From: Nemertoderma westbladi
Lineage: Eukaryota > Animalia > Xenacoelomorpha
DNA: 64,000 bases
Direction of reading: 5' to 3'
NCBI GenBank assembly: GCA_032718475.1
Contig: JAUCBJ010000732.1
Location: forward strand, 62,001-126,000
A program made the translations under genes and the position numbers. The notes under the pieces were generated by a model. It made no database searches. It had not been told where the DNA came from and saw nothing but the letters and a program-made list of their open reading frames with translations. Below, piece after piece: positions 23,951 through 64,000 of this stretch (positions within the stretch are counted from its first letter, which is position 1; each line of letters opens with the position of its first letter).

Positions 23951-23994
23951 TTATCAATGAATTAGTCTAACTATAATAAATGTATTATTTGCAG

Positions 23995-31931: not shown

Positions 31932-31933
31932 TT

Positions 31934-35731: not shown

Positions 35732-35915
35732 CTAACTAAGGAAAATCCGTTGCTATGGACCCCGGATGACGCTATTCCTATAACTGCGTCACCGGGCGTG
35801 ACGTCACTGGGTTCCTTCGGCAACACGAGGGACCGCTCAACCGCACCGACGGCGAATCCGGCTACATCGTAATCGCCGTCCCGGTACATTCCCGGCATCT
35901 CGGCCGTCTCGCCAC
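35732..35915 (-). CDS. GART: GART exon, AIR synthetase ([11 protein letters not shown]...[13 protein letters not shown]...[13 protein letters not shown])
   Basis: Hand-translated PurM motifs; acceptor cccgtttag|GT, donor AG|gtcagt; 184 bp, phase 1/2. Confidence 0.95.
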
Positions 35916-38900
35916 CTAAACGGGTGAGTAAAGAGCGGGAAATTCAAACACCATCTAGGGGACGTATATAGAAACACATACACCTAAACGGGTGAGTAAA
36001 GGGCGGGAAATTCAAACACCATCTAGGGGACATATATAGAAACACATACACCTAAACGGGTGAGTAAAGAGCGGTAAATTCAAACACCATCTAGGGGACG
36101 CATATAGAAACACATACACCTAAACGGGTGAGTAAAGAGCGGGAAATTCAAACACCATCTAGGGGACGCATATAGAAACACATACACCTAAACGGGTGAG
36201 TAAAGCGCGGGAAATTCAAACACCATCTAGGGGACGTATATAGAAACACATACACCTAAACGGGTGAGTAAAGAGCGGGAAATTCAAACACCATCTAGGG
36301 GACGCATATAGAAACACATACACCTAAACGGGTGAGTAAAGAGCGGGAAATTCAAACACCATCTAGGGGACGCATATAGAAACACATACACCGAAACGGG
36401 TGAGTAAAGAGCGGGAAATTCAAACACCATCTAGGGGACGCATATAGAAACACATACACCTAAACGGGTGAGTAAAGAGCGGGAAATTCAAACACCATCT
36501 AGGGGACGTTAATAGAAACACATACACCTAAACGGGTGAGTAAAGAGCGGGAAATTCAAACACCATCTAGGGGACGTATATAGAAACACATACACCGAAA
36601 CGGGTGAGTAAAGAGCGGGAAATTCAAACACAATCTAGGGGACGCATATAGAAACACATACACCGAAACGGGTGAGTAAAGAGCGAGACATTCAAACACC
36701 ATCTAGGGGACGTATATAGAAACACATACACCTAAACGGGTGAGTAAAGAGCGGGAAATTCAAACACCATCTAGGGGACATATATAGATACACATACACC
36801 GAAACGGGTGAGTAAAGAGCGGGAAATTCAAACACCATCTAGTGGACTAGAAACACATACACCGAAACGGGTGAGTAAAGAGCGGGAAATTCAAACACCA
36901 TCTAGGGGACGTATATAGAAACACATACACCTAAACGGGTGAGTAAAGAGCGGGAAATTCAAACACCATCTAGGGGACATATATAGATACACATACACCT
37001 AAACGGGTGAGTAAAGAGCGGTAAATTCAAACACCATCTAGGGGACGCATATAGAAACACATACACCTAAACGGGTGAGTAAAGAGCGGGAAATTCAAAC
37101 ACCATCTAGTGGACTAGAAACACATACACCGAAACGGGTGAGTAAAGAGCGGTAAATTCAAACACCATCTAGGGGACGTATATAGAAACACATACACCTA
37201 AACGGGTGAGTAAAGAGCGGGAAATTCAAGCACAATCAAGGGGACGTATATAGAAACACATACACCTAAACGGGTGAGTAAAGAGCGGTAAATTCAAACA
37301 CCATCTAGGGGACGTATATAGAAACACATACACCTAAACGGGTGAGTAAAGAGCGGGAAATTCAAGCACAATCAAGGGGACGTATATAGAAACACATACA
37401 CCTAAACGGGTGAGTAAAGAGCGGGAAATTCAAACACAATCTAGGGGACGCATATAGAAACACATACACCTAAACGGGTGAGTAAAGAGCGGGAAATTCA
37501 AACACCATCTAGGGGACGTTAATAGAAACACATACACCTAAACGGGTGAGTAAAGAGCGGGAAATTCAAACACCATCTAGGGGACGTATATAGAAACACA
37601 TACACCTAAACGGGTGAGTAAAGAGCGGGAAATTCAAACACCATCTAGGGGACGTATATAGAAACACATACACCTAAACGGGTGAGTAAAGAGCGAGACA
37701 TTCAAACACCATCTAGGACACGTATATAGAAACACATACACCTAAACGGGTGAGTAAAGAGCGGGAAATTCAAGCACAATCAAGGGGACGCATATAGAAA
37801 CACATACACCTAAACGGGTGAGTAAAGAGCGGTAAATTCAAACACCATCTAGGGGACGTATATAGAAACACATACACCTAAACGGGTGAGTAAAGAGCGG
37901 GAAATTCAAACACCATCTAGGGGACGTATATAGAAACACATACACCTAAACGGGTGAGTAAAGAGCGAGACATTCAAACACCATCTAGGACACGTATATA
38001 GAAACACATACACCTAAACGGGTGAGTAAAGGGCGGGAAATTCAAACACCATCTAGGGGACGTTAATAGAAACACATACACCTAAACGGGTGAGTAAAGA
38101 GCGAGACATTCAAACACCATCTAGGGGACGTTAATAGAAACACATACACCTAAACGGGTGAGTAAAGAGCGGGAAATTCAAACACCATCTAGGGGACGTA
38201 TATAGAAACACATACACCTAAACGGGTGAGTAAAGAGCGGGAAATTCAAACACCATCTAGGGGACGCTAATAGAAACACATACACCTAAACGGGTGAGTA
38301 AAGAGCGGGAAATTCAAACACCATCTAGGGGACGTTAATAGAAACACATACACCTAAACGGGTGAGTAAAGAGCGAGACATTCAAACACCATCTAGGGGA
38401 CGTATATAGAAACACATACACCGAAACGGGTGAGTAAAGAGCGGTAAATTCAAACACCATCTAGGGGACGTTAATAGAAACACATACACCTAAACGGGTG
38501 AGTAAAGAGCGAGACATTCAAACACCATCTAGGGGACGTATATAGAAACACATACACCTAAACGGGTGAGTAAAGAGCGGGAAATTCAAACACCATCTAG
38601 GGGACGCATATAGAAACACATACACCTAAACGGGTGAGTAAAGAGCGGGAAATTCAAACACCATCTAGGGGACGCATATAGAAACACATACACCGAAACG
38701 GGTGAGTAAAGAGCGGTAAATTCAAACACCATCTAGGGGACGTTAATAGAAACACATACACCTAAACGGGTGAGTAAAGAGCGGTAAATTCAAACACCAT
38801 CTAGGGGACGTTAATAGAAACACATACACCTAAACGGGTGAGTAAAGAGCGGGAAATTCAAACACCATCTAGGGGACGCATATAGAAACACATACACCGA

Positions 38901-41900
38901 AACGGGTGAGTAAAGAGCGGTAAATTCAAACACCATCTAGGGGACGTTAATAGAAACACATACACCTAAACGGGTGAGTAAAGATCGGTAAATTCAAACA
39001 CCATCTAGGGGACGTATATAGAAACACATACACCTAAACGGGTGAGTAAAGAGCGGCAAATTCAAACACCATCTAGGGGATGTTAATAGAAACACATACA
39101 CCTAAACGGGTGAGTAAAGGGCGGGAAATTCAAACACCATCTAGGGGACGTTAATAGAAACACATACACCTAAACGGGTGAGTAAAGAGCGAGACATTCA
39201 AACACCATCTAGGGGACGTATATAGAAACACATACACCTAAACGGGTGAGTAAAGAGCGGGAAATTCAAACACCATCTAGGGGATGTTAATAGAAACACA
39301 TACACCTAAACGGGTGAGTAAAGGGCGGGAAATTCAAACACCATCTAGGGGATGTTAATAGAAACACATACACCTAAACGGGTGAGTAAAGAGCGGGAAA
39401 TTCAAACACCATCTAGGGGACGCATATAGAAACACATACACCGAAACGGGTGAGTAAAGAGCGGTAAATTCAAACACCATCTAGGGGACGTTAATAGAAA
39501 CACATACACCTAAACGGGTGAGTAAAGAGCGGGAAATTCAAACACCATCTAGGGGACGTTAATAGAAACACATACACCTAAACGGGTGAGTAAAGGGCGG
39601 GAAATTCAAACACCATCTAGGGGACGCATATAGAAACACATACACCGAAACGGGTGAGTAAAGAGCGGTAAATTCAAACACCATCTAGGGGACGTTAATA
39701 GAAACACATACACCTAAACGGGTGAGTAAAGAGCGGGAAATTCAAACACCATCTAGGGGACGTATATAGAAACACATACACCGAAACGGGTGAGTAAAGA
39801 GCGGTAAATTCAAACACCATCTAGGGGACGTATATAGAAACACATACACCTAAACGGGTGAGTAAAGAGCGGGAAATTCAAGCACAATCAAGGGGACGTA
39901 TATAGAAACACATACACCTAAACGGGTGAGTAAAGAGCGGGAAATTCAAACACAATCTAGGGGACGCATATAGAAACACATACACCTAAACGGGTGAGTA
40001 AAGAGCGGGAAATTCAAACACCATCTAGGGGACGTTAATAGAAACACATACACCTAAACGGGTGAGTAAAGAGCGGGAAATTCAAACACCATCTAGGGGA
40101 CGTATATAGAAACACATACACCTAAACGGGTGAGTAAAGAGCGGGAAATTCAAACACCATCTAGGGGACGTATATAGAAACACATACACCTAAACGGGTG
40201 AGTAAAGAGCGAGACATTCAAACACCATCTAGGACACGTATATAGAAACACATACACCTAAACGGGTGAGTAAAGAGCGGGAAATTCAAGCACAATCAAG
40301 GGGACGCATATAGAAACACATACACCTAAACGGGTGAGTAAAGAGCGGTAAATTCAAACACCATCTAGGGGACGTATATAGAAACACATACACCTAAACG
40401 GGTGAGTAAAGAGCGGGAAATTCAAACACCATCTAGGGGACGTATATAGAAACACATACACCTAAACGGGTGAGTAAAGAGCGAGACATTCAAACACCAT
40501 CTAGGACACGTATATAGAAACACATACACCTAAACGGGTGAGTAAAGGGCGGGAAATTCAAACACCATCTAGGGGACGTTAATAGAAACACATACACCTA
40601 AACGGGTGAGTAAAGAGCGAGACATTCAAACACCATCTAGGGGACGTTAATAGAAACACATACACCTAAACGGGTGAGTAAAGAGCGGGAAATTCAAACA
40701 CCATCTAGGGGACGTATATAGAAACACATACACCTAAACGGGTGAGTAAAGAGCGGGAAATTCAAACACCATCTAGGGGACGTTAATAGAAACACATACA
40801 CCTAAACGGGTGAGTAAAGAGCGGGAAATTCAAACACCATCTAGGGGACGTTAATAGAAACACATACACCTAAACGGGTGAGTAAAGAGCGAGACATTCA
40901 AACACCATCTAGGGGACGTATATAGAAACACATACACCGAAACGGGTGAGTAAAGAGCGGTAAATTCAAACACCATCTAGGGGACGTTAATAGAAACACA
41001 TACACCTAAACGGGTGAGTAAAGAGCGAGACATTCAAACACCATCTAGGGGACGTATATAGAAACACATACACCTAAACGGGTGAGTAAAGAGCGGGAAA
41101 TTCAAACACCATCTAGGGGACGCATATAGAAACACATACACCTAAACGGGTGAGTAAAGAGCGGGAAATTCAAACACCATCTAGGGGACGCATATAGAAA
41201 CACATACACCGAAACGGGTGAGTAAAGAGCGGTAAATTCAAACACCATCTAGGGGACGTTAATAGAAACACATACACCTAAACGGGTGAGTAAAGAGCGG
41301 TAAATTCAAACACCATCTAGGGGACGTTAATAGAAACACATACACCTAAACGGGTGAGTAAAGAGCGGGAAATTCAAACACCATCTAGGGGACGCATATA
41401 GAAACACATACACCGAAACGGGTGAGTAAAGAGCGGTAAATTCAAACACCATCTAGGGGACGTTAATAGAAACACATACACCTAAACGGGTGAGTAAAGA
41501 TCGGTAAATTCAAACACCATCTAGGGGACGTATATAGAAACACATACACCTAAACGGGTGAGTAAAGAGCGGCAAATTCAAACACCATCTAGGGGATGTT
41601 AATAGAAACACATACACCTAAACGGGTGAGTAAAGGGCGGGAAATTCAAACACCATCTAGGGGACGTATATAGAAACACATACACCTAAACGGGTGAGTA
41701 AAGAGCGGGAAATTCAAACACCATCTAGGGGACGTATATAGAAACACATACACCTAAACGGGTGAGTAAAGAGCGGGAAATTCAAACACCATCTAGGGGA
41801 CGTATATAGAAACACATACACCTAAACGGGTGAGTAAAGGGCGGGAAATTCAAACACCATCTAGGGGATGTTAATAGAAACACATACACCTAAACGGGTG

Positions 41901-44900
41901 AGTAAAGAGCGGGAAATTCAAACACCATCTAGGGGACGCATATAGAAACACATACACCGAAACGGGTGAGTAAAGAGCGGTAAATTCAAACACCATCTAG
42001 GGGACGTTAATAGAAACACATACACCTAAACGGGTGAGTAAAGAGCGGGAAATTCAAACACCATCTAGGGGACGTTAATAGAAACACATACACCTAAACG
42101 GGTGAGTAAAGAGCGGGAAATTCAAACACCATCTAGGGGACGCATATAGAAACACATACACCGAAACGGGTGAGTAAAGAGCGGTAAATTCAAACACCAT
42201 CTAGGGGACGTTAATAGAAACACATACACCTAAACGGGTGAGTAAAGAGCGGGAAATTCAAACACCATCTAGGGGACGTATATAGAAACACATACACCGA
42301 AACGGGTGAGTAAAGAGCGGTAAATTCAAACACCATCTAGGGGACGTTAATAGAAACACATACACCTAAACGGGTGAGTAAAGAGCGAGACATTCAAACA
42401 CCATCTAGGGGACGTTAATAGAAACACATACACCTATACGGGTGAGTAAAGAGCGGGAAATTCAAACACCATCTAGGGGATGTTAATAGAAACACATACA
42501 CCTAAACGGGTGAGTAAAGAGCGAGACATTCAAACACCATCTAGGGGACGTATATAGAAACACATACACCTAAACGGGTGAGTAAAGAGCGGGAAATTCA
42601 AACACCATCTAGGGGACGCATATAGAAACACATACACCGAAACGGGTGAGTAAAGAGCGGGAAATTCAAACACCATCTAGGGGACGTATATAGATACACA
42701 TACACCTAAACGGGTTAGTAAAGAGCGGTAAATTCAAACACCATCTAGGGGACGTATATAGAAACACATACACCTAAACGGGTGAGTAAAGAGCGAGACA
42801 TTCAAACACCATCTAGGGGACGTATATAGAAACACATACACCTAAACGGGTGAGTAAAGAGCGGGAAATTCAAACACCATCTAGGGGACGCATATAGAAA
42901 CACATACACCTAAACGGGTGAGTAAAGAGCGGGAAATTCAAACACCATCTAGGGGACGCATATAGAAACACATACACCGAAACGGGTGAGTAAAGAGCGG
43001 GAAATTCAAACACCATCTAGGGGACGTATATAGAAACACATACACCTAAACGGGTGAGTAAAGAGCGGGAAATTCAAACACCATCTAGGGGACGTATATA
43101 GAAACACATACACCTAAACGGGTGAGTAAAGAGCGGGAAATTCAAACACCATCTAGGGGACGTTAATAGATACACATACACCTAAACGGGTGAGTAAAGA
43201 GCGGGAAATTCAAACACCATCTAGGGGATGTTAATAGAAACACATACACCTAAACGGGTGAGTAAAGAGCGGGAAATTCAAACACCATCTAGGGGACGCA
43301 TATAGAAACACATACACCGAAACGGGTGAGTAAAGAGCGGGAAATTCAAACACCATCTAGGGGACGTATATAGATACACATACACCTAAACGGGTGAGTA
43401 AAGAGCGGGAAATTCAAACACCATCTAGGGGATGTTAATAGAAACACATACACCTAAACGGGTGAGTAAAGAGCGGGAAATTCAAACACCATCTAGGGGA
43501 CGCATATAGAAACACATACACCTAAACGGGTGAGTAAAGAGCGGGAAATTCAAACACCATCTAGGGGATGTTAATAGAAACACATACACCTAAACGGGTG
43601 AGTAAAGAGCGGGAAATTCAAACACCATCTAGGGGACGCATATAGAAACACATACACCGAAACGGGTGAGTAAAGAGCGGGAAATTCAAACACCATCTAG
43701 GGGACGTATATAGATACACATACACCTAAACGGGTGAGTAAAGAGCGGGAAATTCAAACACCATCTAGGGGATGTTAATAGAAACACATACACCTAAACG
43801 GGTGAGTAAAGAGCGGGAAATTCAAACACCATCTAGGGGACGCATATAGAAACACATACACCTAAACGGGTGAGTAAAGAGCGGGAAATTCAAACACCAT
43901 CTAGGGGACGCATATAGAAACACATACACCTAAACGGGTGAGTAAAGAGCGGTAAATTCAAACACAATCTAGGGGACATATATAGATACACATACACCTA
44001 AACGGGTGAGTAAAGAGCGGGAAATTCAAACACCATCTAGGGGACGTATATAGATACACATACACCTAAACGGGTGAGTAAAGAGAGGGAAATTCAAACA
44101 CCATCTAGGGGACGCATATAGAAACACATACACCGAAACGGGTGAGTAAAGAGCGGGAAATTCAAACACCATCTAGGGGACGTATATAGAAACACATACA
44201 CCTAAACGGGTGAGTAAAGAGCGGGAAATTCAAACACCATCTAGGGGACGTATATAGAAACACATACCCCTAAACGGGTGAGTAAAGAGCGGGAAATTCA
44301 AACACCATCTAGGGGACGTATATAGAAACACATACACCTAAACGGGTGAGTAAAGAGCGGGAAATTCAAACACCATCTAGGGGACGTATATAGAAACACA
44401 TACACCTAAACGGGTGAGTAAAGAGCGGGAAATTCAAACACCATCTAGGGGATGTTAATAGAAACACATACACCTAAACGGGTGAGTAAAGAGCGGGAAA
44501 TTCAAACACCATCTAGGGGATGTTAATAGAAACACATACACCTAAACGGGTGAGTAAAGAGCGGGAAATTCAAACACCATCTAGGGGACGCATATAGAAA
44601 CACATACACCGAAACGGGTGAGTAAAGAGCGGTAAATTCAAACACCATCTAGGGGACGTTAATAGAAACACATACACCTAAACGGGTGAGTAAAGAGCGG
44701 GAAATTCAAACACCATCTAGGGGACGTTAATAGAAACACATACACCTAAACGGGTGAGTAAAGAGCGGGAAATTCAAACACCATCTAGGGGACGCATATA
44801 GAAACACATACACCGAAACGGGTGAGTAAAGAGCGGTAAATTCAAACACCATCTAGGGGACGTTAATAGAAACACATACACCTAAACGGGTGAGTAAAGA

Positions 44901-47900
44901 GCGGGAAATTCAAACACCATCTAGGGGACGTATATAGAAACACATACACCTAAACGGGTGAGTAAAGAGCGAGACATTCAAACACCATCTAGGGGACGTT
45001 AATAGAAACACATACACCTATACGGGTGAGTAAAGAGCGGGAAATTCAAACACCATCTAGGGGATGTTAATAGAAACACATACACCTAAACGGGTGAGTA
45101 AAGAGCGAGACATTCAAACACCATCTAGGGGACGTATATAGAAACACATACACCTAAACGGGTGAGTAAAGAGCGGGAAATTCAAACACCATCTAGGGGA
45201 CGCATATAGAAACACATACACCGAAACGGGTGAGTAAAGAGCGGGAAATTCAAACACCATCTAGGGGACGTATATAGATACACATACACCTAAACGGGTG
45301 AGTAAAGAGCGGTAAATTCAAACACCATCTAGGGGACGTATATAGAAACACATACACCTAAACGGGTGAGTAAAGAGCGAGACATTCAAACACCATCTAG
45401 GGGACGTATATAGAAACACATACACCTAAACGGGTGAGTAAAGAGCGGGAAATTCAAACACCATCTAGGGGACGCATATAGAAACACATACACCTAAACG
45501 GGTGAGTAAAGAGCGGGAAATTCAAACACCATCTAGGGGACGTTAATAGAAACACATACACCTAAACGGGTGAGTAAAGAGCGGGAAATTCAAACACCAT
45601 CTAGGGGACGTATATAGATACACATACACCTAAACGGGTGAGTAAAGAGCGGGAAATTCAAACACCATCTAGGGGACGTATATAGAAACACATACACCGA
45701 AACGGGTGAGTAAAGAGCGGGAAATTCAAACACCATCTAGGGGACGTTAATAGAAACACATACACCTAAACGGGTGAGTAAAGAGCGGGAAATTCAAACA
45801 CCATCTAGGGGACGTATATAGATACACATACACCTAAACGGGTGAGTAAAGAGCGGGAAATTCAAACACCATCTAGGGGATGTTAATAGAAACACATACA
45901 CCTAAACGGGTGAGTAAAGAGCGGGAAATTCAAACACCATCTAGGGGACGCATATAGAAACACATACACCGAAACGGGTGAGTAAAGAGCGGGAAATTCA
46001 AACACCATCTAGGGGACGTATATAGATACACATACACCTAAACGGGTGAGTAAAGAGCGGGAAATTCAAACACCATCTAGGGGATGTTAATAGAAACACA
46101 TACACCTAAACGGGTGAGTAAAGAGCGGGAAATTCAAACACCATCTAGGGGACGCATATAGAAACACATACACCTAAACGGGTGAGTAAAGGGCGGTAAA
46201 TTCAAACACAATCTAGGGGACATATATAGATACACATACACCTAAACGGGTGAGTAAAGAGCGGGAAATTCAAACACCATCTAGGGGACGTATATAGATA
46301 CACATACACCTAAACGGGTGAGTAAAGAGAGGGAAATTCAAACACCATCTAGGGGACGCATATAGAAACACATACACCGAAACGGGTGAGTAAAGAGCGG
46401 GAAATTCAAACACCATCTAGGGGACGTATATAGAAACACATACACCTAAACGGGTGAGTAAAGAGCGGGAAATTCAAACACCATCTAGGGGACGTATATA
46501 GAAACACATACCCCTAAACGGGTGAGTAAAGAGCGGGAAATTCAAACACCATCTAGGGGACGTATATAGAAACACATACACCTAAACGGGTGAGTAAAGA
46601 GCGGGAAATTCAAACACCATCTAGGGGACGCATATAGAAACACATACACCTAAACGGGTGAGTAAAGAGCGGGAAATTCAAACACCATCTAGGGGACGCA
46701 TATAGAAACACATACACCGAAACGGGTGAGTAAAGAGCGGGAAATTCAAACACCATCTAGGGGACGTATATAGATATACATACACCTAAACGGGTGAGTA
46801 AAGAGCGGGAAATTCAAACACCATCTAGGGGACGCATATAGATATACATACACCGAAACGGGTGAGTAAAGAGCGGGAAATTCAAACACAATCTAGGGGA
46901 CGCATATAGATATACATACACCTAAACGGGTGAGTAAAGATCGGGAAATTCAAACACAATCTAGGGGACGCATATAGATATACATACACCGAAACGGGTG
47001 AGTAAAGAGCAGGAAATTCAAACACCATCTAGGGGACGTATATAGAAACACATACACCGAAACGGGTGAGTAAAGAGCGGGAAATTCAAACACCATCTAG
47101 GGGACGTATATAGATACACATACACCTAAACGGGTGAGTAAAGAGCGGGAAATTCAAACACCATCTAGTGGACGTATATAGAAACACATACACCTAAACT
47201 GGTGAGTAAAGAGCGGTAAATTCAAACACCATCTAGGGGACGTTAATAGAAACACATACACCTAAACGGGTGAGTAAAGAGCGGGAAATTCAAACACCAT
47301 CTAGGGGACGTTAATAGAAACACATACACCTAAACGGGTGAGTAAAGAGCGGGAAATTCAAACACCATCTAGTGGACGTATATAGAAACACATACACCTA
47401 AACGGGTGAGTAAAGAGCGGGAAATTCAAGCACAATCAAGGGGACGTATATAGAAACACATACACCTAAACGGGTGAGTAAAGAGCGGGAAATTCAAACA
47501 CCATCTAGGGGACGCATATAGATATACATACACCGAAACGGGTGAGTAAAGAGCGGGAAATTCAAACACAATCTAGGGGACGCATATAGATATACATACA
47601 CCTAAACGGGTGAGTAAAGATCGGGAAATTCAAACACAATCTAGGGGACGCATATAGATATACATACACCGAAACGGGTGAGTAAAGAGCAGGAAATTCA
47701 AACACCATCTAGGGGACGTATATAGAAACACATACACCGAAACGGGTGAGTAAAGAGCGGGAAATTCAAACACCATCTAGGGGACGTATATAGAAACACA
47801 TACACCTAAACGGGTGAGTAAAGAGCGGGAAATTCAAACACCATCTAGGGGACGTTAATAGAAACACATACACCTAAACGGGTGAGTAAAGAGCGGGAAA

Positions 47901-50900
47901 TTCAAACACCATCTAGGGGACGTATATAGATACACATACACCTAAACGGGTGAGTAAAGAGCGGGAAATTCAAACACCATCTAGTGGACGTATATAGAAA
48001 CACATACACCTAAACTGGTGAGTAAAGAGCGGTAAATTCAAACACCATCTAGGGGACGTTAATAGAAACACATACACCTAAACGGGTGAGTAAAGAGCGG
48101 GAAATTCAAACACAATCTAGGGGACGCATATAGAAACACATACACCTAAACGGGTGAGTAAAGAGCGGGAAATTCAAACACCATCTAGGGGACGCATATA
48201 GAAACACATACACCTAAACGGGTGAGTAAAGAGCGGGAAATTCAAACACCATCTAGGGGACGTAATATAGATACACATACACCGAAACGGGTGAGTAAAG
48301 AGCGGGAAATTCAAACACAATCTAGGGGACGTTAATAGAAACACATACACCTAAACGGGTGAGTAAAGAGCGGGAAATTCAAACACCATCTAGTGGACGT
48401 ATATAGAAACACATACACCTAAACGGGTGAGTAAAGAGCGAGACATTCAAACACCATCTAGGGGACGCCTATAGAAACACATACACCTAAACGGGTGAGT
48501 AAAGAGCGGGAAATTCAAACACCATCTAGGGGACGCATATAGAAACACATACACCGAAACGGGTGAGTAAAGAGCGGGAAATTCAAACACAATCTAGGGG
48601 ACGTTAATAGAAACACATACACCTAAACGGGTGACTAAAGAGCGGGAAATTCAAACACCATCTAGTGGACGTATATAGAAACACATACACCTAAACGGGT
48701 GAGTAAAGAGTGGGAAATTCAAACACCATCTAGGGGACGTTAATAGAAACACATACACCTAAACGGGTGAGTAAAGAGCGAGACATTCAAACACCATCTA
48801 GGGGACGCATATAGAAACACATACACCTAAACGGGTGAGTAAAGAGCGGGAAATTCAAACACCATCTAGGGGACGCATATAGAAACACATACACCTAAAC
48901 GGGTGAGTAAAGAGCGGGAAATTCAAACACCATCTAGGGGACGTATATAGATACACATACACCGAAACGGGTGAGTAAAGAGCGGGAAATTCAAACACAA
49001 TCTAGGGGACGTTAATAGAAACACATACACCTAAACGGGTGAGTAAAGAGCGGGAAATTCAAACACCATCTAGTGGACGTATATAGAAACACATACACCT
49101 AAACGGGTGAGTAAAGAGCGAGACATTCAAACACCATCTAGGGGACGTATATAGAAACACATACACCTAAACGGGTGAGTAAAGAGCGGGAAATTCAAAC
49201 ACCATCTAGGGGACGCATATAGAAACACATACACCGAAACGGGTGAGTAAAGAGCGGGAAATTCAAACACCATCTAGGGGACGTTAATAGAAACACATAC
49301 ACCTAAACGGGTGACTAAAGAGCGGGAAATTCAAACACCATCTAGTGGACGTATATAGAAACACATACACCTAAACGGGTGAGTAAAGAGTGGGAAATTC
49401 AAACACCATCTAGGGGACGTTAATAGAAACACATACACCTAAACGGGTGAGTAAAGAGCGAGACATTCAAACACCATCTAGGGGACGCATATAGAAACAC
49501 ATACACCTAAACGGGTGAGTAAAGAGCGGGAAATTCAAACACCATCTAGGGGACGCATATAGAAACACATACACCTAAACGGGTGAGTAAAGAGCGGGAA
49601 ATTCAAACACCATCTAGGGGACGTATATAGATACACATACACCGAAACGGGTGAGTAAAGAGCGGGAAATTCAAACACAATCTAGGGGACGTTAATAGAA
49701 ACACATACACCTAAACGGGTGAGTAAAGAGCGGGAAATTCAAACACCATCTAGTGGACGTATATAGAAACACATACACCTAAACGGGTGAGTAAAGAGCG
49801 AGACATTCAAACACCATCTAGGGGACGCCTATAGAAACACATACACCTAAACGGGTGAGTAAAGAGCGGGAAATTCAAACACCATCTAGGGGACGCATAT
49901 AGAAACACATACACCTAAACGGGTGAGTAAAGAGCGGGAAATTCAAACACCATCTAGGGGATGTTAATAGAAACACATACACCTAAACGGGTGAGTAAAG
50001 AGCGAGACATTCAAACACCATCTAGGGGACGTTAATAGAAACACATACACCTAAACGGGTGAGTAAAGAGCGGGAAATTCAAACACCATCTAGGGGACGT
50101 ATATAGAAACACATACACCGAAACGGGTGAGTAAAGAGCGGGAAATTCAAACACCATCTAGTGGACGTATATAGAAACACATACACCTAAACGGGTGAGT
50201 AAAGAGCGAGACATTCAAACACCATCTAGGGGACGCCTATAGAAACACATACACCTAAACGGGTGAGTAAAGAGCGGGAAATTCAAACACCATCTAGGGG
50301 ACGCATATAGATACACATACACCGAAACGGGTGAGTAAAGAGCGGGAAATTCAAACACAATCTAGGGGACGTTAATAGAAACACATACACCTAAACGGGT
50401 GAGTAAAGAGCGGGAAATTCAAACACCATCTAGTGGACGTATATAGAAACACATACACCTAAACGGGTGAGTAAAGAGCGAGACATTCAAACACCATCTA
50501 GGGGACGCCTATAGAAACACATACACCTAAACGGGTGAGTAAAGAGCGGGAAATTCAAACACCATCTAGGGGACGCATATAGAAACACATACACCTAAAC
50601 GGGTGAGTAAAGAGCGGGAAATTCAAACACCATCTAGGGGATGTTAATAGAAACACATACACCTAAACGGGTGAGTAAAGAGCGAGACATTCAAACACCA
50701 TCTAGGGGACGTTAATAGAAACACATACACCTAAACGGGTGAGTAAAGAGCGGGAAATTCAAACACCATCTAGGGGACGTATATAGATACACATACACCT
50801 AAACGGGTGAGTAAAGAGCGGGAAATTCAAACACCATCTAGTGGACGTATATAGAAACACATACACCTAAACTGGTGAGTAAAGAGCGGTAAATTCAAAC

Positions 50901-53900
50901 ACCATCTAGGGGACGTTAATAGAAACACATACACCTAAACGGGTGAGTAAAGAGCGGGAAATTCAAACACCATCTAGGGGACGTTAATAGAAACACATAC
51001 ACCTAAACGGGTGAGTAAAGAGCGGGAAATTCAAACACCATCTAGTGGACGTATATAGAAACACATACACCTAAACGGGTGAGTAAAGAGCGAGACATTC
51101 AAACACCATCTAGGGGACGCCTATAGAAACACATACACCTAAACGGGTGAGTAAAGAGCGGGAAATTCAAACACCATCTAGGGGACGCATATAGAAACAC
51201 ATACACCTAAACGGGTGAGTAAAGAGCGGGAAATTCAAACACCATCTAGGGGATGTTAATAGAAACACATACACCTAAACGGGTGAGTAAAGAGCGAGAC
51301 ATTCAAACACCATCTAGGGGACGCCTATAGAAACACATACACCTAAACGGGTGAGTAAAGAGCGGGAAATTCAAACACCATCTAGGGGACGCATATAGAA
51401 ACACATACACCGAAACGGGTGAGTAAAGAGCGGGAAATTCAAACACAATCTAGGGGACGTTAATAGAAACACATACACCTAAACGGGTGACTAAAGAGCG
51501 GGAAATTCAAACACCATCTAGTGGACGTATATAGAAACACATACACCTAAACGGGTGAGTAAAGAGTGGGAAATTCAAACACCATCTAGGGGACGTTAAT
51601 AGAAACACATACACCTAAACGGGTGAGTAAAGAGCGAGACATTCAAACACCATCTAGGGGACGCATATAGAAACACATACACCTAAACGGGTGAGTAAAG
51701 AGCGGGAAATTCAAACACCATCTAGGGGACGCATATAGAAACACATACACCTAAACGGGTGAGTAAAGAGCGGGAAATTCAAACACCATCTAGGGGACGT
51801 ATATAGATACACATACACCGAAACGGGTGAGTAAAGAGCGGGAAATTCAAACACAATCTAGGGGACGTTAATAGAAACACATACACCTAAACGGGTGAGT
51901 AAAGAGCGGGAAATTCAAACACCATCTAGTGGACGTATATAGAAACACATACACCTAAACGGGTGAGTAAAGAGCGAGACATTCAAACACCATCTAGGGG
52001 ACGCCTATAGAAACACATACACCTAAACGGGTGAGTAAAGAGCGGGAAATTCAAACACCATCTAGGGGACGCATATAGAAACACATACACCTAAACGGGT
52101 GAGTAAAGAGCGGGAAATTCAAACACCATCTAGGGGATGTTAATAGAAACACATACACCTAAACGGGTGAGTAAAGAGCGAGACATTCAAACACCATCTA
52201 GGGGACGTTAATAGAAACACATACACCTAAACGGGTGAGTAAAGAGCGGGAAATTCAAACACCATCTAGGGGACGTATATAGAAACACATACACCGAAAC
52301 GGGTGAGTAAAGAGCGGGAAATTCAAACACCATCTAGTGGACGTATATAGAAACACATACACCTAAACGGGTGAGTAAAGAGCGAGACATTCAAACACCA
52401 TCTAGGGGACGCCTATAGAAACACATACACCTAAACGGGTGAGTAAAGAGCGGGAAATTCAAACACCATCTAGGGGACGCATATAGAAACACATACACCG
52501 AAACGGGTGAGTAAAGAGCGGGAAATTCAAACACAATCTAGGGGACGTTAATAGAAACACATACACCTAAACGGGTGACTAAAGAGCGGGAAATTCAAAC
52601 ACAATCTAGTGGACGTATATAGAAACACATACACCTAAACGGGTGAGTAAAGAGTGGGAAATTCAAACACCATCTAGGGGACGTTAATAGAAACACATAC
52701 ACCTAAACGGGTGAGTAAAGAGCGAGACATTCAAACACCATCTAGGGGACGCATATAGAAACACATACACCTAAACGGGTGAGTAAAGAGCGGGAAATTC
52801 AAACACCATCTAGGGGACGCATATAGAAACACATACACCTAAACGGGTGAGTAAAGAGCGGGAAATTCAAACACCATCTAGGGGACGTATATAGATACAC
52901 ATACACCGAAACGGGTGAGTAAAGAGCGGGAAATTCAAACACAATCTAGGGGACGTTAATAGAAACACATACACCTAAACGGGTGAGTAAAGAGCGGGAA
53001 ATTCAAACACCATCTAGTGGACGTATATAGAAACACATACACCTAAACGGGTGAGTAAAGAGCGAGACATTCAAACACCATCTAGGGGACGCCTATAGAA
53101 ACACATACACCTAAACGGGTGAGTAAAGAGCGGGAAATTCAAACACCATCTAGGGGACGCATATAGAAACACATACACCTAAACGGGTGAGTAAAGAGCG
53201 GGAAATTCAAACACCATCTAGGGGATGTTAATAGAAACACATACACCTAAACGGGTGAGTAAAGAGCGAGACATTCAAACACCATCTAGGGGACGTTAAT
53301 AGAAACACATACACCTAAACGGGTGAGTAAAGAGCGGGAAATTCAAACACCATCTAGGGGACGTATATAGATACACATACACCTAAACGGGTGAGTAAAG
53401 AGCGGGAAATTCAAACACCATCTAGTGGACGTATATAGAAACACATACACCTAAACTGGTGAGTAAAGAGCGGTAAATTCAAACACCATCTAGGGGACGT
53501 TAATAGAAACACATACACCTAAACGGGTGAGTAAAGAGCGGGAAATTCAAACACCATCTAGGGGACGTTAATAGAAACACATACACCTAAACGGGTGAGT
53601 AAAGAGCGGGAAATTCAAACACCATCTAGTGGACGTATATAGAAACACATACACCTAAACGGGTGAGTAAAGAGCGAGACATTCAAACACCATCTAGGGG
53701 ACGCCTATAGAAACACATACACCTAAACGGGTGAGTAAAGAGCGGGAAATTCAAACACCATCTAGGGGACGCATATAGAAACACATACACCTAAACGGGT
53801 GAGTAAAGAGCGGGAAATTCAAACACCATCTAGGGGATGTTAATAGAAACACATACACCTAAACGGGTGAGTAAAGAGCGAGACATTCAAACACCATCTA

Positions 53901-56900
53901 GGGGACGTTAATAGAAACACATACACCTAAACGGGTGAGTAAAGAGCGGGAAATTCAAACACCATCTAGGGGACGTATATAGAAACACATACACCGAAAC
54001 GGGTGAGTAAAGAGCGGGAAATTCAAACACCATCTAGTGGACGTATATAGAAACACATACACCTAAACGGGTGAGTAAAGAGTGGGAAATTCAAACACCA
54101 TCTAGGGGACGTTAATAGAAACACATACACCTAAACGGGTGAGTAAAGAGCGAGACATTCAAACACCATCTAGGGGACGCATATAGAAACACATACACCT
54201 AAACGGGTGAGTAAAGAGCGGGAAATTCAAACACCATCTAGGGGACGCATATAGAAACACATACACCTAAACGGGTGAGTAAAGAGCGGGAAATTCAAAC
54301 ACCATCTAGGGGACGTATATAGATACACATACACCGAAACGGGTGAGTAAAGAGCGGGAAATTCAAACACAATCTAGGGGACGTTAATAGAAACACATAC
54401 ACCTAAACGGGTGAGTAAAGAGCGGGAAATTCAAACACCATCTAGTGGACGTATATAGAAACACATACACCTAAACGGGTGAGTAAAGAGCGAGACATTC
54501 AAACACCATCTAGGGGACGCCTATAGAAACACATACACCTAAACGGGTGAGTAAAGAGCGGGAAATTCAAACACCATCTAGGGGACGCATATAGAAACAC
54601 ATACACCTAAACGGGTGAGTAAAGAGCGGGAAATTCAAACACCATCTAGGGGATGTTAATAGAAACACATACACCTAAACGGGTGAGTAAAGAGCGAGAC
54701 ATTCAAACACCATCTAGGGGACGTTAATAGAAACACATACACCTAAACGGGTGAGTAAAGAGCGGGAAATTCAAACACCATCTAGGGGACGTATATAGAT
54801 ACACATACACCTAAACGGGTGAGTAAAGAGCGGGAAATTCAAACACCATCTAGTGGACGTATATAGAAACACATACACCTAAACTGGTGAGTAAAGAGCG
54901 GTAAATTCAAACACCATCTAGGGGACGTTAATAGAAACACATACACCTAAACGGGTGAGTAAAGAGCGGGAAATTCAAACACCATCTAGGGGACGTTAAT
55001 AGAAACACATACACCTAAACGGGTGAGTAAAGAGCGGGAAATTCAAACACCATCTAGTGGACGTATATAGAAACACATACACCTAAACGGGTGAGTAAAG
55101 AGCGGGAAATTCAAGCACAATCAAGGGGACGTATATAGAAACACATACACCTAAACGGGTGAGTAAAGAGCGGGAAATTCAAACACCATCTAGGGGACGC
55201 ATATAGATATACATACACCGAAACGGGTGAGTAAAGAGCGGGAAATTCAAACACAATCTAGGGGACGCATATAGATATACATACACCTAAACGGGTGAGT
55301 AAAGATCGGGAAATTCAAACACAATCTAGGGGACGCATATAGATATACATACACCGAAACGGGTGAGTAAAGAGCAGGAAATTCAAACACCATCTAGGGG
55401 ACGTATATAGAAACACATACACCGAAACGGGTGAGTAAAGAGCGGGAAATTCAAACACCATCTAGGGGACGTATATAGAAACACATACACCTAAACGGGT
55501 GAGTAAAGAGCGGGAAATTCAAACACCATCTAGGGGACGTTAATAGAAACACATACACCTAAACGGGTGAGTAAAGAGCGGGAAATTCAAACACCATCTA
55601 GGGGACGTATATAGATACACATACACCTAAACGGGTGAGTAAAGAGCGGGAAATTCAAACACCATCTAGTGGACGTATATAGAAACACATACACCTAAAC
55701 TGGTGAGTAAAGAGCGGTAAATTCAAACACCATCTAGGGGACGTTAATAGAAACACATACACCTAAACGGGTGAGTAAAGAGCGGGAAATTCAAACACAA
55801 TCTAGGGGACGCATATAGAAACACATACACCTAAACGGGTGAGTAAAGAGCGGGAAATTCAAACACCATCTAGGGGACGCATATAGAAACACATACACCT
55901 AAACGGGTGAGTAAAGAGCGGGAAATTCAAACACCATCTAGGGGACGTATATAGATACACATACACCGAAACGGGTGAGTAAAGAGCGGGAAATTCAAAC
56001 ACAATCTAGGGGACGTTAATAGAAACACATACACCTAAACGGGTGAGTAAAGAGCGGGAAATTCAAACACCATCTAGTGGACGTATATAGAAACACATAC
56101 ACCTAAACGGGTGAGTAAAGAGCGAGACATTCAAACACCATCTAGGGGACGCCTATAGAAACACATACACCTAAACGGGTGAGTAAAGAGCGGGAAATTC
56201 AAACACCATCTAGGGGACGCATATAGAAACACATACACCGAAACGGGTGAGTAAAGAGCGGGAAATTCAAACACAATCTAGGGGACGTTAATAGAAACAC
56301 ATACACCTAAACGGGTGACTAAAGAGCGGGAAATTCAAACACCATCTAGTGGACGTATATAGAAACACATACACCTAAACGGGTGAGTAAAGAGTGGGAA
56401 ATTCAAACACCATCTAGGGGACGTTAATAGAAACACATACACCTAAACGGGTGAGTAAAGAGCGAGACATTCAAACACCATCTAGGGGACGCATATAGAA
56501 ACACATACACCTAAACGGGTGAGTAAAGAGCGGGAAATTCAAACACCATCTAGGGGACGCATATAGAAACACATACACCTAAACGGGTGAGTAAAGAGCG
56601 GGAAATTCAAACACCATCTAGGGGACGTATATAGATACACATACACCGAAACGGGTGAGTAAAGAGCGGGAAATTCAAACACAATCTAGGGGACGTTAAT
56701 AGAAACACATACACCTAAACGGGTGAGTAAAGAGCGGGAAATTCAAACACCATCTAGTGGACGTATATAGAAACACATACACCTAAACGGGTGAGTAAAG
56801 AGCGAGACATTCAAACACCATCTAGGGGACGCCTATAGAAACACATACACCTAAACGGGTGAGTAAAGAGCGGGAAATTCAAACACCATCTAGGGGACGC

Positions 56901-59900
56901 ATATAGAAACACATACACCTAAACGGGTGAGTAAAGAGCGGGAAATTCAAACACCATCTAGGGGATGTTAATAGAAACACATACACCTAAACGGGTGAGT
57001 AAAGAGCGAGACATTCAAACACCATCTAGGGGACGTTAATAGAAACACATACACCTAAACGGGTGAGTAAAGAGCGGGACATTCAAACACCATCTAGGGG
57101 ACGTTAATAGAAACACATACACCTAAACGGGTGAGTAAAGAGCGAGACATTCAAACACCATCTAGGGGACGCATATAGAAACACATACACCTAAACGGGT
57201 GAGTAAAGAGCGGGAAATTCAAACACCATCTAGGGGACGCATATAGAAACACATACACCTAAACGGGTGAGTAAAGAGCGGGAAATTCAAACACCATCTA
57301 GGGGACGTATATAGATACACATACACCGAAACGGGTGAGTAAAGAGCGGGAAATTCAAACACAATCTAGGGGACGTTAATAGAAACACATACACCTAAAC
57401 GGGTGAGTAAAGAGCGGGAAATTCAAACACCATCTAGTGGACGTATATAGAAACACATACACCTAAACGGGTGAGTAAAGAGCGAGACATTCAAACACCA
57501 TCTAGGGGACGCCTATAGAAACACATACACCTAAACGGGTGAGTAAAGAGCGGGAAATTCAAACACCATCTAGGGGACGCATATAGAAACACATACACCT
57601 AAACGGGTGAGTAAAGAGCGGGAAATTCAAACACCATCTAGGGGACGCATATAGAAACACATACACCTAAACGGGTGAGTAAAGAGCGGGAAATTCAAAC
57701 ACCATCTAGTGGACGTATATAGAAACACATACACCTAAACGGGTGAGTAAAGAGCGAGACATTCAAACACCATCTAGGGGACGCCTATAGAAACACATAC
57801 ACCTAAACGGGTGAGTAAAGAGCGGGAAATTCAAACACCATCTAGGGGACGCATATAGAAACACATACACCGAAACGGGTGAGTAAAGAGCGGGAAATTC
57901 AAACACAATCTAGGGGACGTTAATAGAAACACATACACCTAAACGGGTGAGTAAAGAGCGGGAAATTCAAACACCATCTAGTGGACGTATATAGAAACAC
58001 ATACACCTAAACGGGTGAGTAAAGAGTGGGAAATTCAAACACCATCTAGGGGACGTTAATAGAAACACATACACCTAAACGGGTGAGTAAAGAGCGAGAC
58101 ATTCAAACACCATCTAGGGGACGCATATAGAAACACATACACCTAAACGGGTGAGTAAAGAGCGGGAAATTCAAACACCATCTAGGGGACGCATATAGAA
58201 ACACATACACCTAAACGGGTGAGTAAAGAGCGGGAAATTCAAACACCATCTAGGGGACGTATATAGATACACATACACCTAAACGGGTGAGTAAAGAGCG
58301 GGAAATTCAAACACCATCTAGGGGACGTTAATAGAAACACATACACCTAAACGGGTGAGTAAAGAGCGGGAAATTCAAACACCATCTAGTGGACGTATAT
58401 AGAAACACATACACCTAAACGGGTGAGTAAAGAGCGGGAAATTCAAACACCATCTAGGGGACGTATATAGATACACATACACCGAAACGGGTGAGTAAAG
58501 AGCGGGAAATTCAAACACCATCTAGGGGACGTTAATAGAAACACATACACCTAAACGGGTGAGTAAAGAGCGGGAAATTCAAACACCATCTAGGGGACGT
58601 ATATAGATACACATACACCGAAACGGGTGAGTAAAGAGCGGGAAATTCAAACACAATCTAGGGGACGTTAATAGAAACACATACACCTAAACGGGTGAGT
58701 AAAGAGCGGGAAATTCAAACACCATCTAGTGGACGTATATAGAAACACATACACCTAAACGGGTGAGTAAAGAGCGAGACATTCAAACACCATCTAGGGG
58801 ACGCCTATAGAAACACATACACCTAAACGGGTGAGTAAAGAGCGGGAAATTCAAACACCATCTAGGGGACGCATATAGAAACACATACACCTAAACGGGT
58901 GAGTAAAGAGCGGGAAATTCAAACACCATCTAGGGGATGTTAATAGAAACACATACACCTAAACGGGTGAGTAAAGAGCGAGACATTCAAACACCATCTA
59001 GGGGACGTTAATAGAAACACATACACCTAAACGGGTGAGTAAAGAGCGGGAAATTCAAACACCATCTAGGGGACGTTAATAGAAACACATACACCTAAAC
59101 GGGTGAGTAAAGAGCGAGACATTCAAACACCATCTAGGGGACGCATATAGAAACACATACACCTAAACGGGTGAGTAAAGAGCGGGAAATTCAAACACCA
59201 TCTAGGGGACGCATATAGAAACACATACACCTAAACGGGTGAGTAAAGAGCGGGAAATTCAAACACCATCTAGGGGACGTATATAGATACACATACACCG
59301 AAACGGGTGAGTAAAGAGCGGGAAATTCAAACACAATCTAGGGGACGTTAATAGAAACACATACACCTAAACGGGTGAGTAAAGAGCGGGAAATTCAAAC
59401 ACCATCTAGTGGACGTATATAGAAACACATACACCTAAACGGGTGAGTAAAGAGCGAGACATTCAAACACCATCTAGGGGACGCCTATAGAAACACATAC
59501 ACCTAAACGGGTGAGTAAAGAGCGGGAAATTCAAACACCATCTAGGGGACGCATATAGAAACACATACACCTAAACGGGTGAGTAAAGAGCGGGAAATTC
59601 AAACACCATCTAGGGGACGTATATAGAAACACATACACCTAAACGGGTGAGTAAAGAGCGGAAATTCAAACACCATCTAGGGGACGTTAATAGAAACACA
59701 TACACCTAAACGGGTGAGTAAAGAGCGGGAAATTCAAACACCATCTAGGGGACGTATATAGAAACACATACACCGAAACGGGTGAGTAAAGAGCGGGAAA
59801 TTCAAACACCATCTAGTGGACGTATATAGAAACACATACACCTAAACGGGTGAGTAAAGAGCGAGACATTCAAACACCATCTAGGGGACGCCTATAGAAA

Positions 59901-62900
59901 CACATACACCTAAACGGGTGAGTAAAGAGCGGGAAATTCAAACACCATCTAGGGGACGCATATAGAAACACATACACCGAAACGGGTGAGTAAAGAGCGG
60001 GAAATTCAAACACAATCTAGGGGACGTTAATAGAAACACATACACCTAAACGGGTGACTAAAGAGCGGGAAATTCAAACACAATCTAGTGGACGTATATA
60101 GAAACACATACACCTAAACGGGTGAGTAAAGAGTGGGAAATTCAAACACCATCTAGGGGACGTTAATAGAAACACATACACCTAAACGGGTGAGTAAAGA
60201 GCGAGACATTCAAACACCATCTAGGGGACGCATATAGAAACACATACACCTAAACGGGTGAGTAAAGAGCGGGAAATTCAAACACCATCTAGGGGACGCA
60301 TATAGAAACACATACACCTAAACGGGTGAGTAAAGAGCGGGAAATTCAAACACCATCTAGGGGACGTATATAGATACACATACACCGAAACGGGTGAGTA
60401 AAGAGCGGGAAATTCAAACACAATCTAGGGGACGTTAATAGAAACACATACACCTAAACGGGTGAGTAAAGAGCGGGAAATTCAAACACCATCTAGTGGA
60501 CGTATATAGAAACACATACACCTAAACGGGTGAGTAAAGAGCGAGACATTCAAACACCATCTAGGGGACGCCTATAGAAACACATACACCTAAACGGGTG
60601 AGTAAAGAGCGGGAAATTCAAACACCATCTAGGGGACGCATATAGAAACACATACACCTAAACGGGTGAGTAAAGAGCGGGAAATTCAAACACCATCTAG
60701 GGGATGTTAATAGAAACACATACACCTAAACGGGTGAGTAAAGAGCGAGACATTCAAACACCATCTAGGGGACGTTAATAGAAACACATACACCTAAACG
60801 GGTGAGTAAAGAGCGGGAAATTCAAACACCATCTAGGGGACGTATATAGAAAACATACACCGAAACGGGTGAGTAAAGAGCGGGAAATTCAAACACAATC
60901 TAGGGGACGTTAATAGAAACACATACACCTAAACGGGTGAGTAAAGAGCGGGAAATTCAAACACCATCTAGTGGACGTATATAGAAACACATACACCTAA
61001 ACGGGTGAGTAAAGAGCGGGAAATTCAAACACCATCTAGGGGACGTTAATAGAAACACATACACCTAAACGGGTGAGTAAAGAGCGGGAAATTCAAACAC
61101 CATCTAGGGGACGTTAATAGAAACACATACACCTAAACGGGTGAGTAAAGAGCGGGAAATTCAAACACCATCTAGGGGACGTTAATAGAAACACATACAC
61201 CTAAACGGGTGAGTAAAGAGCGAGACATTCAAACACCATCTAGGGGACGTTAATAGAAACACATACACCTAAACGGGTGAGTAAAGAGCGGGAAATTCAA
61301 ACACCATCTAGGGGACGTATATAGAAACACATACACCGAAACGGGTGAGTAAAGAGCGGGAAATTCAAACACCATCTAGTGGACGTATATAGAAACACAT
61401 ACACCTAAACGGGTGAGTAAAGAGCGAGACATTCAAACACCATCTAGGGGACGCCTATAGAAACACATACACCTAAACGGGTGAGTAAAGAGCGGGAAAT
61501 TCAAACACCATCTAGGGGACGCATATAGAAACACATACACCGAAACGGGTGAGTAAAGAGCGGGAAATTCAAACACAATCTAGGGGACGTTAATAGAAAC
61601 ACATACACCTAAACGGGTGACTAAAGAGCGGGAAATTCAAACACAATCTAGTGGACGTATATAGAAACACATACACCTAAACGGGTGAGTAAAGAGTGGG
61701 AAATTCAAACACCATCTAGGGGACGTTAATAGAAACACATACACCTAAACGGGTGAGTAAAGAGCGAGACATTCAAACACCATCTAGGGGACGCATATAG
61801 AAACACATACACCTAAACGGGTGAGTAAAGAGCGGGAAATTCAAACACCATCTAGGGGACGCATATAGAAACACATACACCTAAACGGGTGAGTAAAGAG
61901 CGGGAAATTCAAACACCATCTAGGGGACGTATATAGATACACATACACCGAAACGGGTGAGTAAAGAGCGGGAAATTCAAACACAATCTAGGGGACGTTA
62001 ATAGAAACACATACACCTAAACGGGTGAGTAAAGAGCGGGAAATTCAAACACCATCTAGTGGACGTATATAGAAACACATACACCTAAACGGGTGAGTAA
62101 AGAGCGAGACATTCAAACACCATCTAGGGGACGCCTATAGAAACACATACACCTAAACGGGTGAGTAAAGAGCGGGAAATTCAAACACCATCTAGGGGAC
62201 GCATATAGAAACACATACACCTAAACGGGTGAGTAAAGAGCGGGAAATTCAAACACCATCTAGGGGACGTTAATAGAAACACATACACCTAAACGGGTGA
62301 GTAAAGAGCGGGAAATTCAAACACCATCTAGGGGACGTATATAGAAACACATACACCGAAACGGGTGAGTAAAGAGCGGGAAATTCAAACACAATCTAGG
62401 GGACGTTAATAGAAACACATACACCTAAACGGGTGAGTAAAGAGCGGGAAATTCAAACACCATCTAGGGGACGCATATAGAAACACATACACCTAAACGG
62501 GTGAGTAAAGAGCGGGAAATTCAAACACCATCTAGGGGACGTTAATAGAAACACATACACCTAAACGGGTGAGTAAAGAGCGGGAAATTCAAACACCATC
62601 TAGGGGACGTATATAGAAACACATACACCGAAACGGGTGAGTAAAGAGCGGGAAATTCAAACACCATCTAGGGGACGTCTATAGAAACACATACACCTAA
62701 ACGGGTGAGTAAAGAGCGGGAAATTCAAACACCATCTAGGGGACGTTAATAGAAACACATACACCTAAACGGGTGAGTAAAGAGCGGGAAATTCAAACAC
62801 CATCTAGGGGACGCATATAGAAACACATACACCTAAACGGGTGAGTAAAGAGCGGGAAATTCAAACACCATCTAGGGGACGTATATAGAAACACATACAC

Positions 62901-63671
62901 CTAAACGGGTGAGTAAAGAGCGGTAAATTCAAACACCATCTAGGGGACGTTAATAGAAACACATACACCTAAACGGGTGAGTAAAGAGCGAGACATTCAA
63001 ACACCATCTAGGGGACGCCTATAGAAACACATACACCTAAACGGGTGAGTAAAGAGCGGGAAATTCAAACACCATCTAGGGGACGCATATAGAAACACAT
63101 ACACCTAAACGGGTGAGTAAAGAGCGGGAAATTCAAACACCATCTAGGGGATGTTAATAGAAACACATACACCTAAACGGGTGAGTAAAGAGCGAGACAT
63201 TCAAACACCATCTAGGGGACGCCTATAGAAACACATACACCTAAACGGGTGAGTAAAGAGCGGGAAATTCAAACACCATCTAGGGGACGCATATAGAAAC
63301 ACATACACCGAAACGGGTGAGTAAAGAGCGGGAAATTCAAACACAATCTAGGGGACGTTAATAGAAACACATACACCTAAACGGGTGACTAAAGAGCGGG
63401 AAATTCAAACACCATCTAGTGGACGTATATAGAAACACATACACCTAAACGGGTGAGTAAAGAGTGGGAAATTCAAACACCATCTAGGGGACGTTAATAG
63501 AAACACATACACCTAAACGGGTGAGTAAAGAGCGAGACATTCAAACACCATCTAGGGGACGCATATAGAAACACATACACCTAAACGGGTGAGTAAAGAG
63601 CGGGAAATTCAAACACCATCTAGGGGACGCATATAGAAACACATACACCGAAACGGGTGAGTAAAGAGCGG
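35913..63671 (-). repeat. 68-bp satellite, ~408 copies, filling GART intron 35916-63737; each unit contains the intron's 3' splice site
   Basis: Plus-strand unit cacctaaacgggtgagtaaagagcgggaaattcaaacaccatctaggggacgtatatagaaacacata; the terminal copy supplies the functional acceptor at 35916. Confidence 0.97.
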
Positions 63672-63737
63672 TTAAATCGTGCTACGGCATAGAGGAACAG
63701 TGAGTGACAATAATTAGCATCAACTATCACAACCCAC

Positions 63738-63936
63738 CAATCAAGGCACATCCGCAATCTTTGCAAGCCTTGGCGACGCTTTTAACTACAGACGTTGCCA
63801 CGGCTACATCCAATCGGGAGCAGGCGTAGTAATCAAGGAAGAATAAGGGTTCGGCCCCCACAGTGAGGATGTCGTTGACGCACATAGCAACCAAATCCTG
63901 CCCAATGGTGTCATGGAAACCGGCCTCCAACGCAAT
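63738..63936 (-). CDS. GART: GART exon, AIR synthetase N-terminal domain ([24 protein letters not shown]...[10 protein letters not shown]...CALIG)
   Basis: PurM motifs; acceptor tgctgtag|ATT, donor ATTG|gtgggt; phase-1 join to 35915 restores [11 protein letters not shown]. Confidence 0.95.
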
Positions 63937-64000
63937 CTACAGCACAACCAACCACCAATTAGAGTTTAGAGTTAAATTCTGCTATTCAATTTAACATTTC

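Follow-up and report, generated by a model that had tools for sequence, protein, structure and literature searches.

A 27.8-kb GART intron built from some 408 copies of its own acceptor boundary: probably a mirage-type minisatellite skipped by exon definition

We analyzed a 64,000-nucleotide stretch of the Nemertoderma westbladi assembly (the window) whose minus strand carries exons of a GART gene. One GART intron reaches 27.8 kb through 408 tandem copies of a 68-base piece that includes the intron's acceptor signal. We consider it likely (probability roughly 0.7) that this boundary repeat is a mirage-type minisatellite and that its copies are skipped, probably because only the last acceptor precedes the real exon and its donor. 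A donor of the same gene is multiplied as well, so that GART combines one multiplied acceptor and one multiplied donor. The kind is known and the case is extreme: the intron is about 310 times its unit-free length, 336 AG decoys lie ahead of the real junction, and the size and the two mirages in one gene stand out. Giant satellite-filled introns are known in flies.

GART exons in the window

Five exons were located; X4 and X5 are sequencing runs described below.

63738..63936, minus strand: GART exon IALEAG...CALI-G, upstream of the giant intron (Pfam AIRS, E 7.5e-15)
35916..63737, minus strand: GT..AG intron, phase 1, 27,822 nt; the sole GT..AG cut at the join, with the skip implied by an X4 contig
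35732..35915, minus strand: GART exon GGETAEMPG...GFSLVR, 184 nt, donor TAG|GTCAGT (sequence and X4 joints)
34847..35394, minus strand: GART exon with AIRS_C (Pfam E 1.7e-20; joints on both sides in X4 and on the 3' side in X5)
34300..34430, minus strand: GART exon GTNLQAIIDY..., start of the formyltransferase (homology, joints and splice sites)
33293..33547, minus strand: GART exon VLSHKG...GCTAHFVE, closed by the first donor of a 42-nt array (Pfam Formyl_trans_N, E 2.4e-26)

All five exons align with animal GART proteins, and Pfam matches (AIRS, AIRS_C and Formyl_trans_N) were obtained in four of the five exon pieces scanned. Joined through GT..AG introns, the exons give 439 codons without a stop. 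Among the 120 homologues listed, the best shares 57.7% identity with the protein, and the best animal proteins share about 53 to 58%. The three neighbouring introns measure just 337, 416 and 752 nt. Within the window, neither tblastn queries made of homologue C-termini (best E 0.2) nor a profile built from 63 tails (best E 2) located the last GART exon, and an X4 contig continues for 566 bases past the donor at 33293. Provided that the assembly is correct, the last intron exceeds 33 kb and contains two long open frames of other genes (window 1-31932). Another GART intron holds, at about 34085-34250, a short dispersed element of very high copy number, represented by thousands of contigs with varied flanks in each DNA run of sample S2.

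An acceptor array of 408 units

The giant intron (63737 to 35916 on the minus strand) has the donor ATTG|GTGGGT and the acceptor TTTAG|GTGGCG and consists of the following parts.

63672..63737, minus strand: unique 5' leader, 66 nt, with the native donor ATTG|GTGGGT (sequence)
63646..63671, minus strand: first, partial copy, comprising a 23-nt acceptor tail and GTG; its AG reads CG in the assembly (sequence)
35916..63648, minus strand: 408 tandem 68-nt units, with GTG (the first three exon bases) at the start and the acceptor tail at the end (TRF and segmentation)

The layout is thus a 66-nt leader, a 26-nt stretch, and then a unit of 42 + 26 nt repeated up to the exon, each unit containing 65 intron and 3 exon bases. 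The leader ends in TTTAAC, which we take to be a branch-point-like motif, about 24 nt before the first junction. The idea that the leader is a decayed unit is unsupported, as its 11-of-13 match to the 42-nt middle of the unit is at chance level (608 of 2000 shuffles were as good). TRF on the window reported a period of 68 and 408.4 copies at 35913-63671. Segmentation gave 403 units of 68 nt, two of 67, two of 63 and one of 69, and the 68-mers have a mean identity to the consensus of 96.8%. The 408 units comprise 61 distinct sequences, 42 of the 68 unit positions are invariant, and the longest run of identical units spans 16 copies, or about 1.1 kb. The last unit (35916-35983) equals the consensus, constitutes the real acceptor and abuts the GGETAEMPG exon; 29 copies are identical to it. 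The 12-mers of the 42-nt middle of the unit occur nowhere else in the window. The array is real, and the earlier note's account of it (an intron of about 27.8 kb, some 408 copies, about 66 unique nucleotides, and a last copy serving as the acceptor) was borne out on these points.

That note also had each unit ending in TAG, which applies to 337 of the 408 units; the other 71 end in TCG. Among all 409 junctions, 334 read TAG|GTGTAT, 2 TAG|GGGTAT and 72 TCG|GTGTAT, and one is the true TAG|GTGGCG. The first junction after the native donor is TCG and thus has no AG. Hundreds of acceptor decoys do precede the true site, with 336 TAG junctions upstream of it, but not every unit is a decoy. The acceptor tails of the units contain 15 pyrimidines in 18 positions, compared with 12 to 13 in real ones. 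The AG-killing variant (17%) ranks only fourth among the variable positions and occurs 15, 15, 22 and 19 times in successive quarters of the array; it is therefore not exceptional, and we discarded selection against decoy AGs. Nothing in the array points to its splice signals being under selection.

Some details went beyond that note, which included neither the mirage class nor the 42-nt array described below. A second TAG lies in the middle of 401 of the 408 units. The unit variants form a higher-order arrangement across 35916-63648, with recurring blocks in the 5' half and other blocks in the 3' part. One variant that creates TTTAC at about -24 becomes commoner along the array in the direction of the true acceptor, going from 1 to 23 per quarter; a CCAC variant falls to 0.

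Splicing and array presence in public sequencing runs

Six public runs are listed under one organism label, none of them recorded as RNA; five contain the stretch, and the share in X6 was 0.00. We compared contigs of X1 to X4 over 63590-64000 and of X2 to X5 over 33250-35985, where X2, X3 and X5 represent sample S2 and X4 represents S3. Such assembled contigs show the end product of splicing and not its path, drop rare forms, and provide in their depth no measure of copy number or expression. In X2 and X3 the introns were covered and splice joints were absent. Joints with CT..AC ends were present at three short introns, all three in X4 and two in X5, and because of these joints we read the two runs, labelled 'DNA?', as probable RNA. 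A processed DNA copy is a less likely source of the X4 joints, because the X4 pieces match the window without any base difference and the intron-covering runs lack joints.

The giant intron was crossed by a 759-nt X4 contig (depth 430.4) that covers 35230-35393, 35731-35916 and 63734-63936. The last of these pieces has 0 differences to the window and runs into other exons at both ends. The loose end of the contig corresponds to window 35882-35911, the pieces overlap by five shared bases, and the skip is exactly 27,822. Therefore, the mature join ATTG|GTGGCGAG, which the earlier note had proposed to search for, exists, and it carries no added bases. This join was seen in one X4 contig from one study. 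The other X4 contig on this intron is a 98-nt loop of the unit, unlinked to an exon. Its depth of 203 amounts to about 2 per copy by window word counts (96.6 copies per word), or roughly 0.5% of the exon depth; the loop fits pre-mRNA or DNA background and is indistinguishable from unit-sized intermediates. Contigs joining the exon end ...GCCTTGATTG to the unit start GTGTATGTG were found in none of the four runs compared, a result of little weight given that contigs drop rare forms.

In sample S2, a 1838-nt X3 contig extends from 34120 through the exon to 35963, which lies 48 nt inside the last unit. The depth of unit contigs greatly exceeds that of unique sequence in runs X1, X2 and X3. Together, these contigs show the presence, though not the length, of the array in a second sample. 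Copy number calculated from contig depth was inconsistent and was abandoned: the unique contig of X1 has a depth of 3.44, compared with about 17 per copy implied by three unit contigs on the window's word counts. At the other end of the array (63642-63680), an X3 contig differs from the window at six positions, five of which are listed, with the sixth near the contig end; an X2 contig stops at 63651, beside the AG/CG base of the first junction. The sixth difference may be the AG form of this junction, in which case the dead first acceptor may be polymorphic.

A second, donor array in the same gene

The formyltransferase exon ends in a further boundary repeat.

31933..33328, minus strand: second boundary array, 33 x 42 nt (TRF and sequence)

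Each 42-nt unit consists of the last 36 bases of the exon followed by GTAAGT and is in frame (14 codons), so that use of later donors would lengthen the protein and not shift its frame. The donors read GAG|GTAAGT in 32 units and GAT|GTAAGT in one, and GTAAGT is kept in all 33. A 10-nt near-repeat flanks the unit, which suggests that the array began as a duplication by microhomology. A 1336-nt X4 contig covers 33291-33544 and leaves the window sequence at 33291, the first donor of the array; this one spliced contig fully accounts for the X4 depth of 303.7 in the bin 33250-33341. Thus, the first of the 33 donors is used in this X4 contig. There were no X4 or X5 contigs of the 42-nt unit and no X4 cover over the introns, neither of which alone proves anything.

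Probable skipping of the array by exon definition

The 29 units identical to the real acceptor unit are all followed by GTG, and the choice of the true site must hence come from beyond exon base +3. Two routes are conceivable: selection of the last acceptor by the exon body and its donor, or use of upstream acceptors that are then removed again. We favor the first of these, the exon definition that the earlier note had offered as its alternative, and it agrees with published mirage behavior. The ancestral intron would have been short, 89 nt without a unit and 157 nt with one. It may have acquired two copies of the 26-nt boundary stretch around 42 other bases, after which slippage or unequal exchange would have amplified and homogenized the 68-nt unit, as for the other arrays of the window. 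The last acceptor would be chosen by the exon body, that is, by exon enhancers together with the GTCAGT donor 184 nt further on. Occasional slips to upstream acceptors would be removed by nonsense-mediated decay, since stopping at an upstream acceptor with the remainder retained leads to a premature stop in 408 of 408 cases. By the same token, unit-stopped products would be degraded, and a leak would be missing from steady-state contigs whether or not it occurs. Arrays at such a boundary can survive because the exon-side copy stays intact. Three considerations speak against simple skipping: the polymerase passes 336 TAG junctions over 27.8 kb before it reaches the true acceptor, the short neighbouring introns would favor pairing with the nearest acceptor, and mature RNA is known to hide splicing intermediates (PMC6110457).

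Donor strength and competing explanations

The idea of the earlier note that the array is removed recursively looks unlikely. According to this proposal, the native donor joins a unit acceptor, the resulting ATTG|GTGTAT serves as the next donor, and the intron is lost stepwise or in random jumps. The setting fits: 334 TAG|GTGTAT junctions place an acceptor directly before GT inside a long intron, and the unit tails are as pyrimidine-rich as real ones. The donors fit less well. The consensus donor is CAG|GTAAGT, and we scored donors by a crude count of matches to this consensus and not by a species-specific model. The regenerated zero-length donor TTG|GTGTAT has A at +5 and scores 4.5 of 9, below the five real GART donors, which reach 6 to 8 and all have G at +5. 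The best competitor, GGT|GTATGT, lies 2 nt further on and scores 5.5 of 9 with G at +5. By this crude count the regenerated donor is thus weaker than its downstream competitor, whereas ratchet donors in flies and mammals generally beat theirs and have an ultraconserved motif (PMC8605326). Use of the +2 donor, which the earlier note had mentioned, would leave GT (2 nt per step), shift the frame and create a stop, and the assembled X4 join has no extra bases. In addition, AG is lost at 72 of the 409 junctions with no sign of purging, and the contigs of all four runs lack an exon-to-unit join, weak as that evidence is. On the other side, human UBC shows that splicing at tandem AG|GT sites can occur (PMC10809524), polyA-type data are of limited power for revealing splicing intermediates (PMC6110457), and recursion predicts the same exact join as its end product. 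If the satellite were excised through itself, the donor would jump during transcription to one of about 330 unit acceptors and pieces of n x 68 nt would be released. Such a satellite would bring along the signal for its own removal and could thus expand 300-fold within an essential gene, but we regard this as improbable. What stands of the proposed self-neutralization is correct splicing and the assembly of a full-frame product; the chain of 68-nt mini-introns found no support in the checks that we ran.

A leak through the decoys acting as a dosage brake is unlikely. Here, an appreciable fraction of transcripts would be caught by unit acceptors or cryptic exons of 2+68n nt and destroyed, and copy number would tune GART output. 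All products tested hit a premature stop, the 6 cryptic exons as well as the 408 retained forms, and such products would be invisible in steady-state RNA; moreover, the decoy in the most favorable position, the first one, has lost its AG in this assembly, although with a chance of 72/409 this is not significant. Against a brake, the spliced GART contigs are deep in X4 (430-548), even if depth is a poor measure of expression, and published mirages are reported to lack aberrant mRNA (PMC3902484). Finally, the assembler might have inserted an array into a short intron or inflated it, and no read or contig bridges the array. We give this explanation hardly any credence: the S2 contig from 34120 to 35963 enters the last unit, deep unit contigs occur in three runs, and the 61 different sequences, with no identical run longer than about 1.1 kb, would be resolvable by long reads. 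Skipping by exon definition remains our lead reading.

Comparison with known boundary repeats

Mirages of amphioxus are tandem copies of an intron-exon boundary at either end of an intron, many but not all of which keep AG or GT; they occur in Adh3, the globin genes BflGb6 and BflGb9, troponin C and PGBD5 (PMC3087553; PMC3902484). Their units measure 10-160 bp, and splicing is reported as normal (PMC3087553; PMC3902484). The GART arrays share these traits: copies of the 3' and the 5' boundary, the splice signal in many copies, and normal mRNA. In both, the unit spans the boundary and the exon-side copy is the authentic one, the last copy in the 68-nt array and the first in the 42-nt array. The splice signal is present in many copies but not all (TAG at 337 of 409 junctions; GTAAGT in 33 of 33 donors), regular mRNA is made at the contig level (for the big intron, in one study), and the units are homogenized (96.8% identity, blocks of up to 16 identical units, and variants shifting along the array). 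The 68-nt unit falls within the 10-72 bp given for the Adh3 mirage. By contrast, BflGb6 has 3-6 copies, compared with 408 copies and 27.8 kb here, and GART differs further in that both an acceptor and a donor are multiplied within one gene. Another difference is that only three exon bases are copied, which makes each junction a bare AG|GT. We found no published case with hundreds of acceptor copies in the literature searched, which misses most subscription papers and supplements.

Two human repeats follow the same positional rules. Intron 7 of F7 (IVS7) has a 37-bp VNTR whose first unit spans the exon-intron boundary; identical donors follow, and splicing takes the one furthest upstream (PMC1557585). 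The GART 42-nt array obeys this first-donor rule with 33 copies; the likeness to F7 concerns the donor array, not the acceptor array. In the CBS allele 844ins68, 68 bp around a 3' splice site (52 intron and 16 exon bases) are duplicated; splicing goes to the downstream acceptor and thereby removes the upstream copy (PMC7490669). It has one extra copy compared with 408, and the GART unit has 65 intron and 3 exon bases; the equal length of 68 is a coincidence. Both GART arrays follow the F7 and CBS rules, first donor and last acceptor. Recursive sites and the array of human UBC resemble the GART array in having AG|GT junctions in a long intron and, in UBC, tandem spacing (PMC8605326; PMC6110457; PMC10809524). 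UBC contains an array of dual-specific sites whose units are coding, have lengths divisible by 3 and can be retained or excised in frame (PMC10809524). In contrast, the 68-nt GART unit is not divisible by 3 and its retained forms all reach a stop.

Many decoys match the real acceptor in every base as far as exon base +3. The locus therefore offers a clean natural experiment on whether the exon body decides acceptor choice, and also on whether recursion can arise by accident from tandem duplication. Because a single housekeeping gene has both kinds of array, the last-acceptor and the first-donor rule can both be tested on one transcript.

Other features of the window

Seven tandem arrays make up 38,851 of the 64,000 bases (61% of the window). 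Further arrays lie at 28689-29510 (16-nt x51), 29891-31265 (63-nt x22) and 13708-14418 (163-nt x4), and inspection of the flanks of these three revealed no exons at their ends. On the plus strand, a 1440-codon open frame at 23961-28280 has a weak TOG match (XMAP215/CLASP) whose E of 7e-5 falls short of the Pfam cut-off. At 25063-26260 it contains 28.5 copies of a 42-nt repeat that keeps the frame. A TTTGCAG resembling an acceptor ends at about 23994, roughly 50 nt past an array with 193 copies of a 29-nt unit. Broken retrotransposon-like pieces occur at 8764-10961 (plus strand) and 16770-18295 (minus strand), with DUF1759 and a weak aspartyl protease match; presumably they are of the Bel/Pao type. 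An uninterrupted 1264-codon ABC transporter frame, containing two ABC_membrane and two ABC_tran domains, lies at 220-4011 on the minus strand, the strand of GART.
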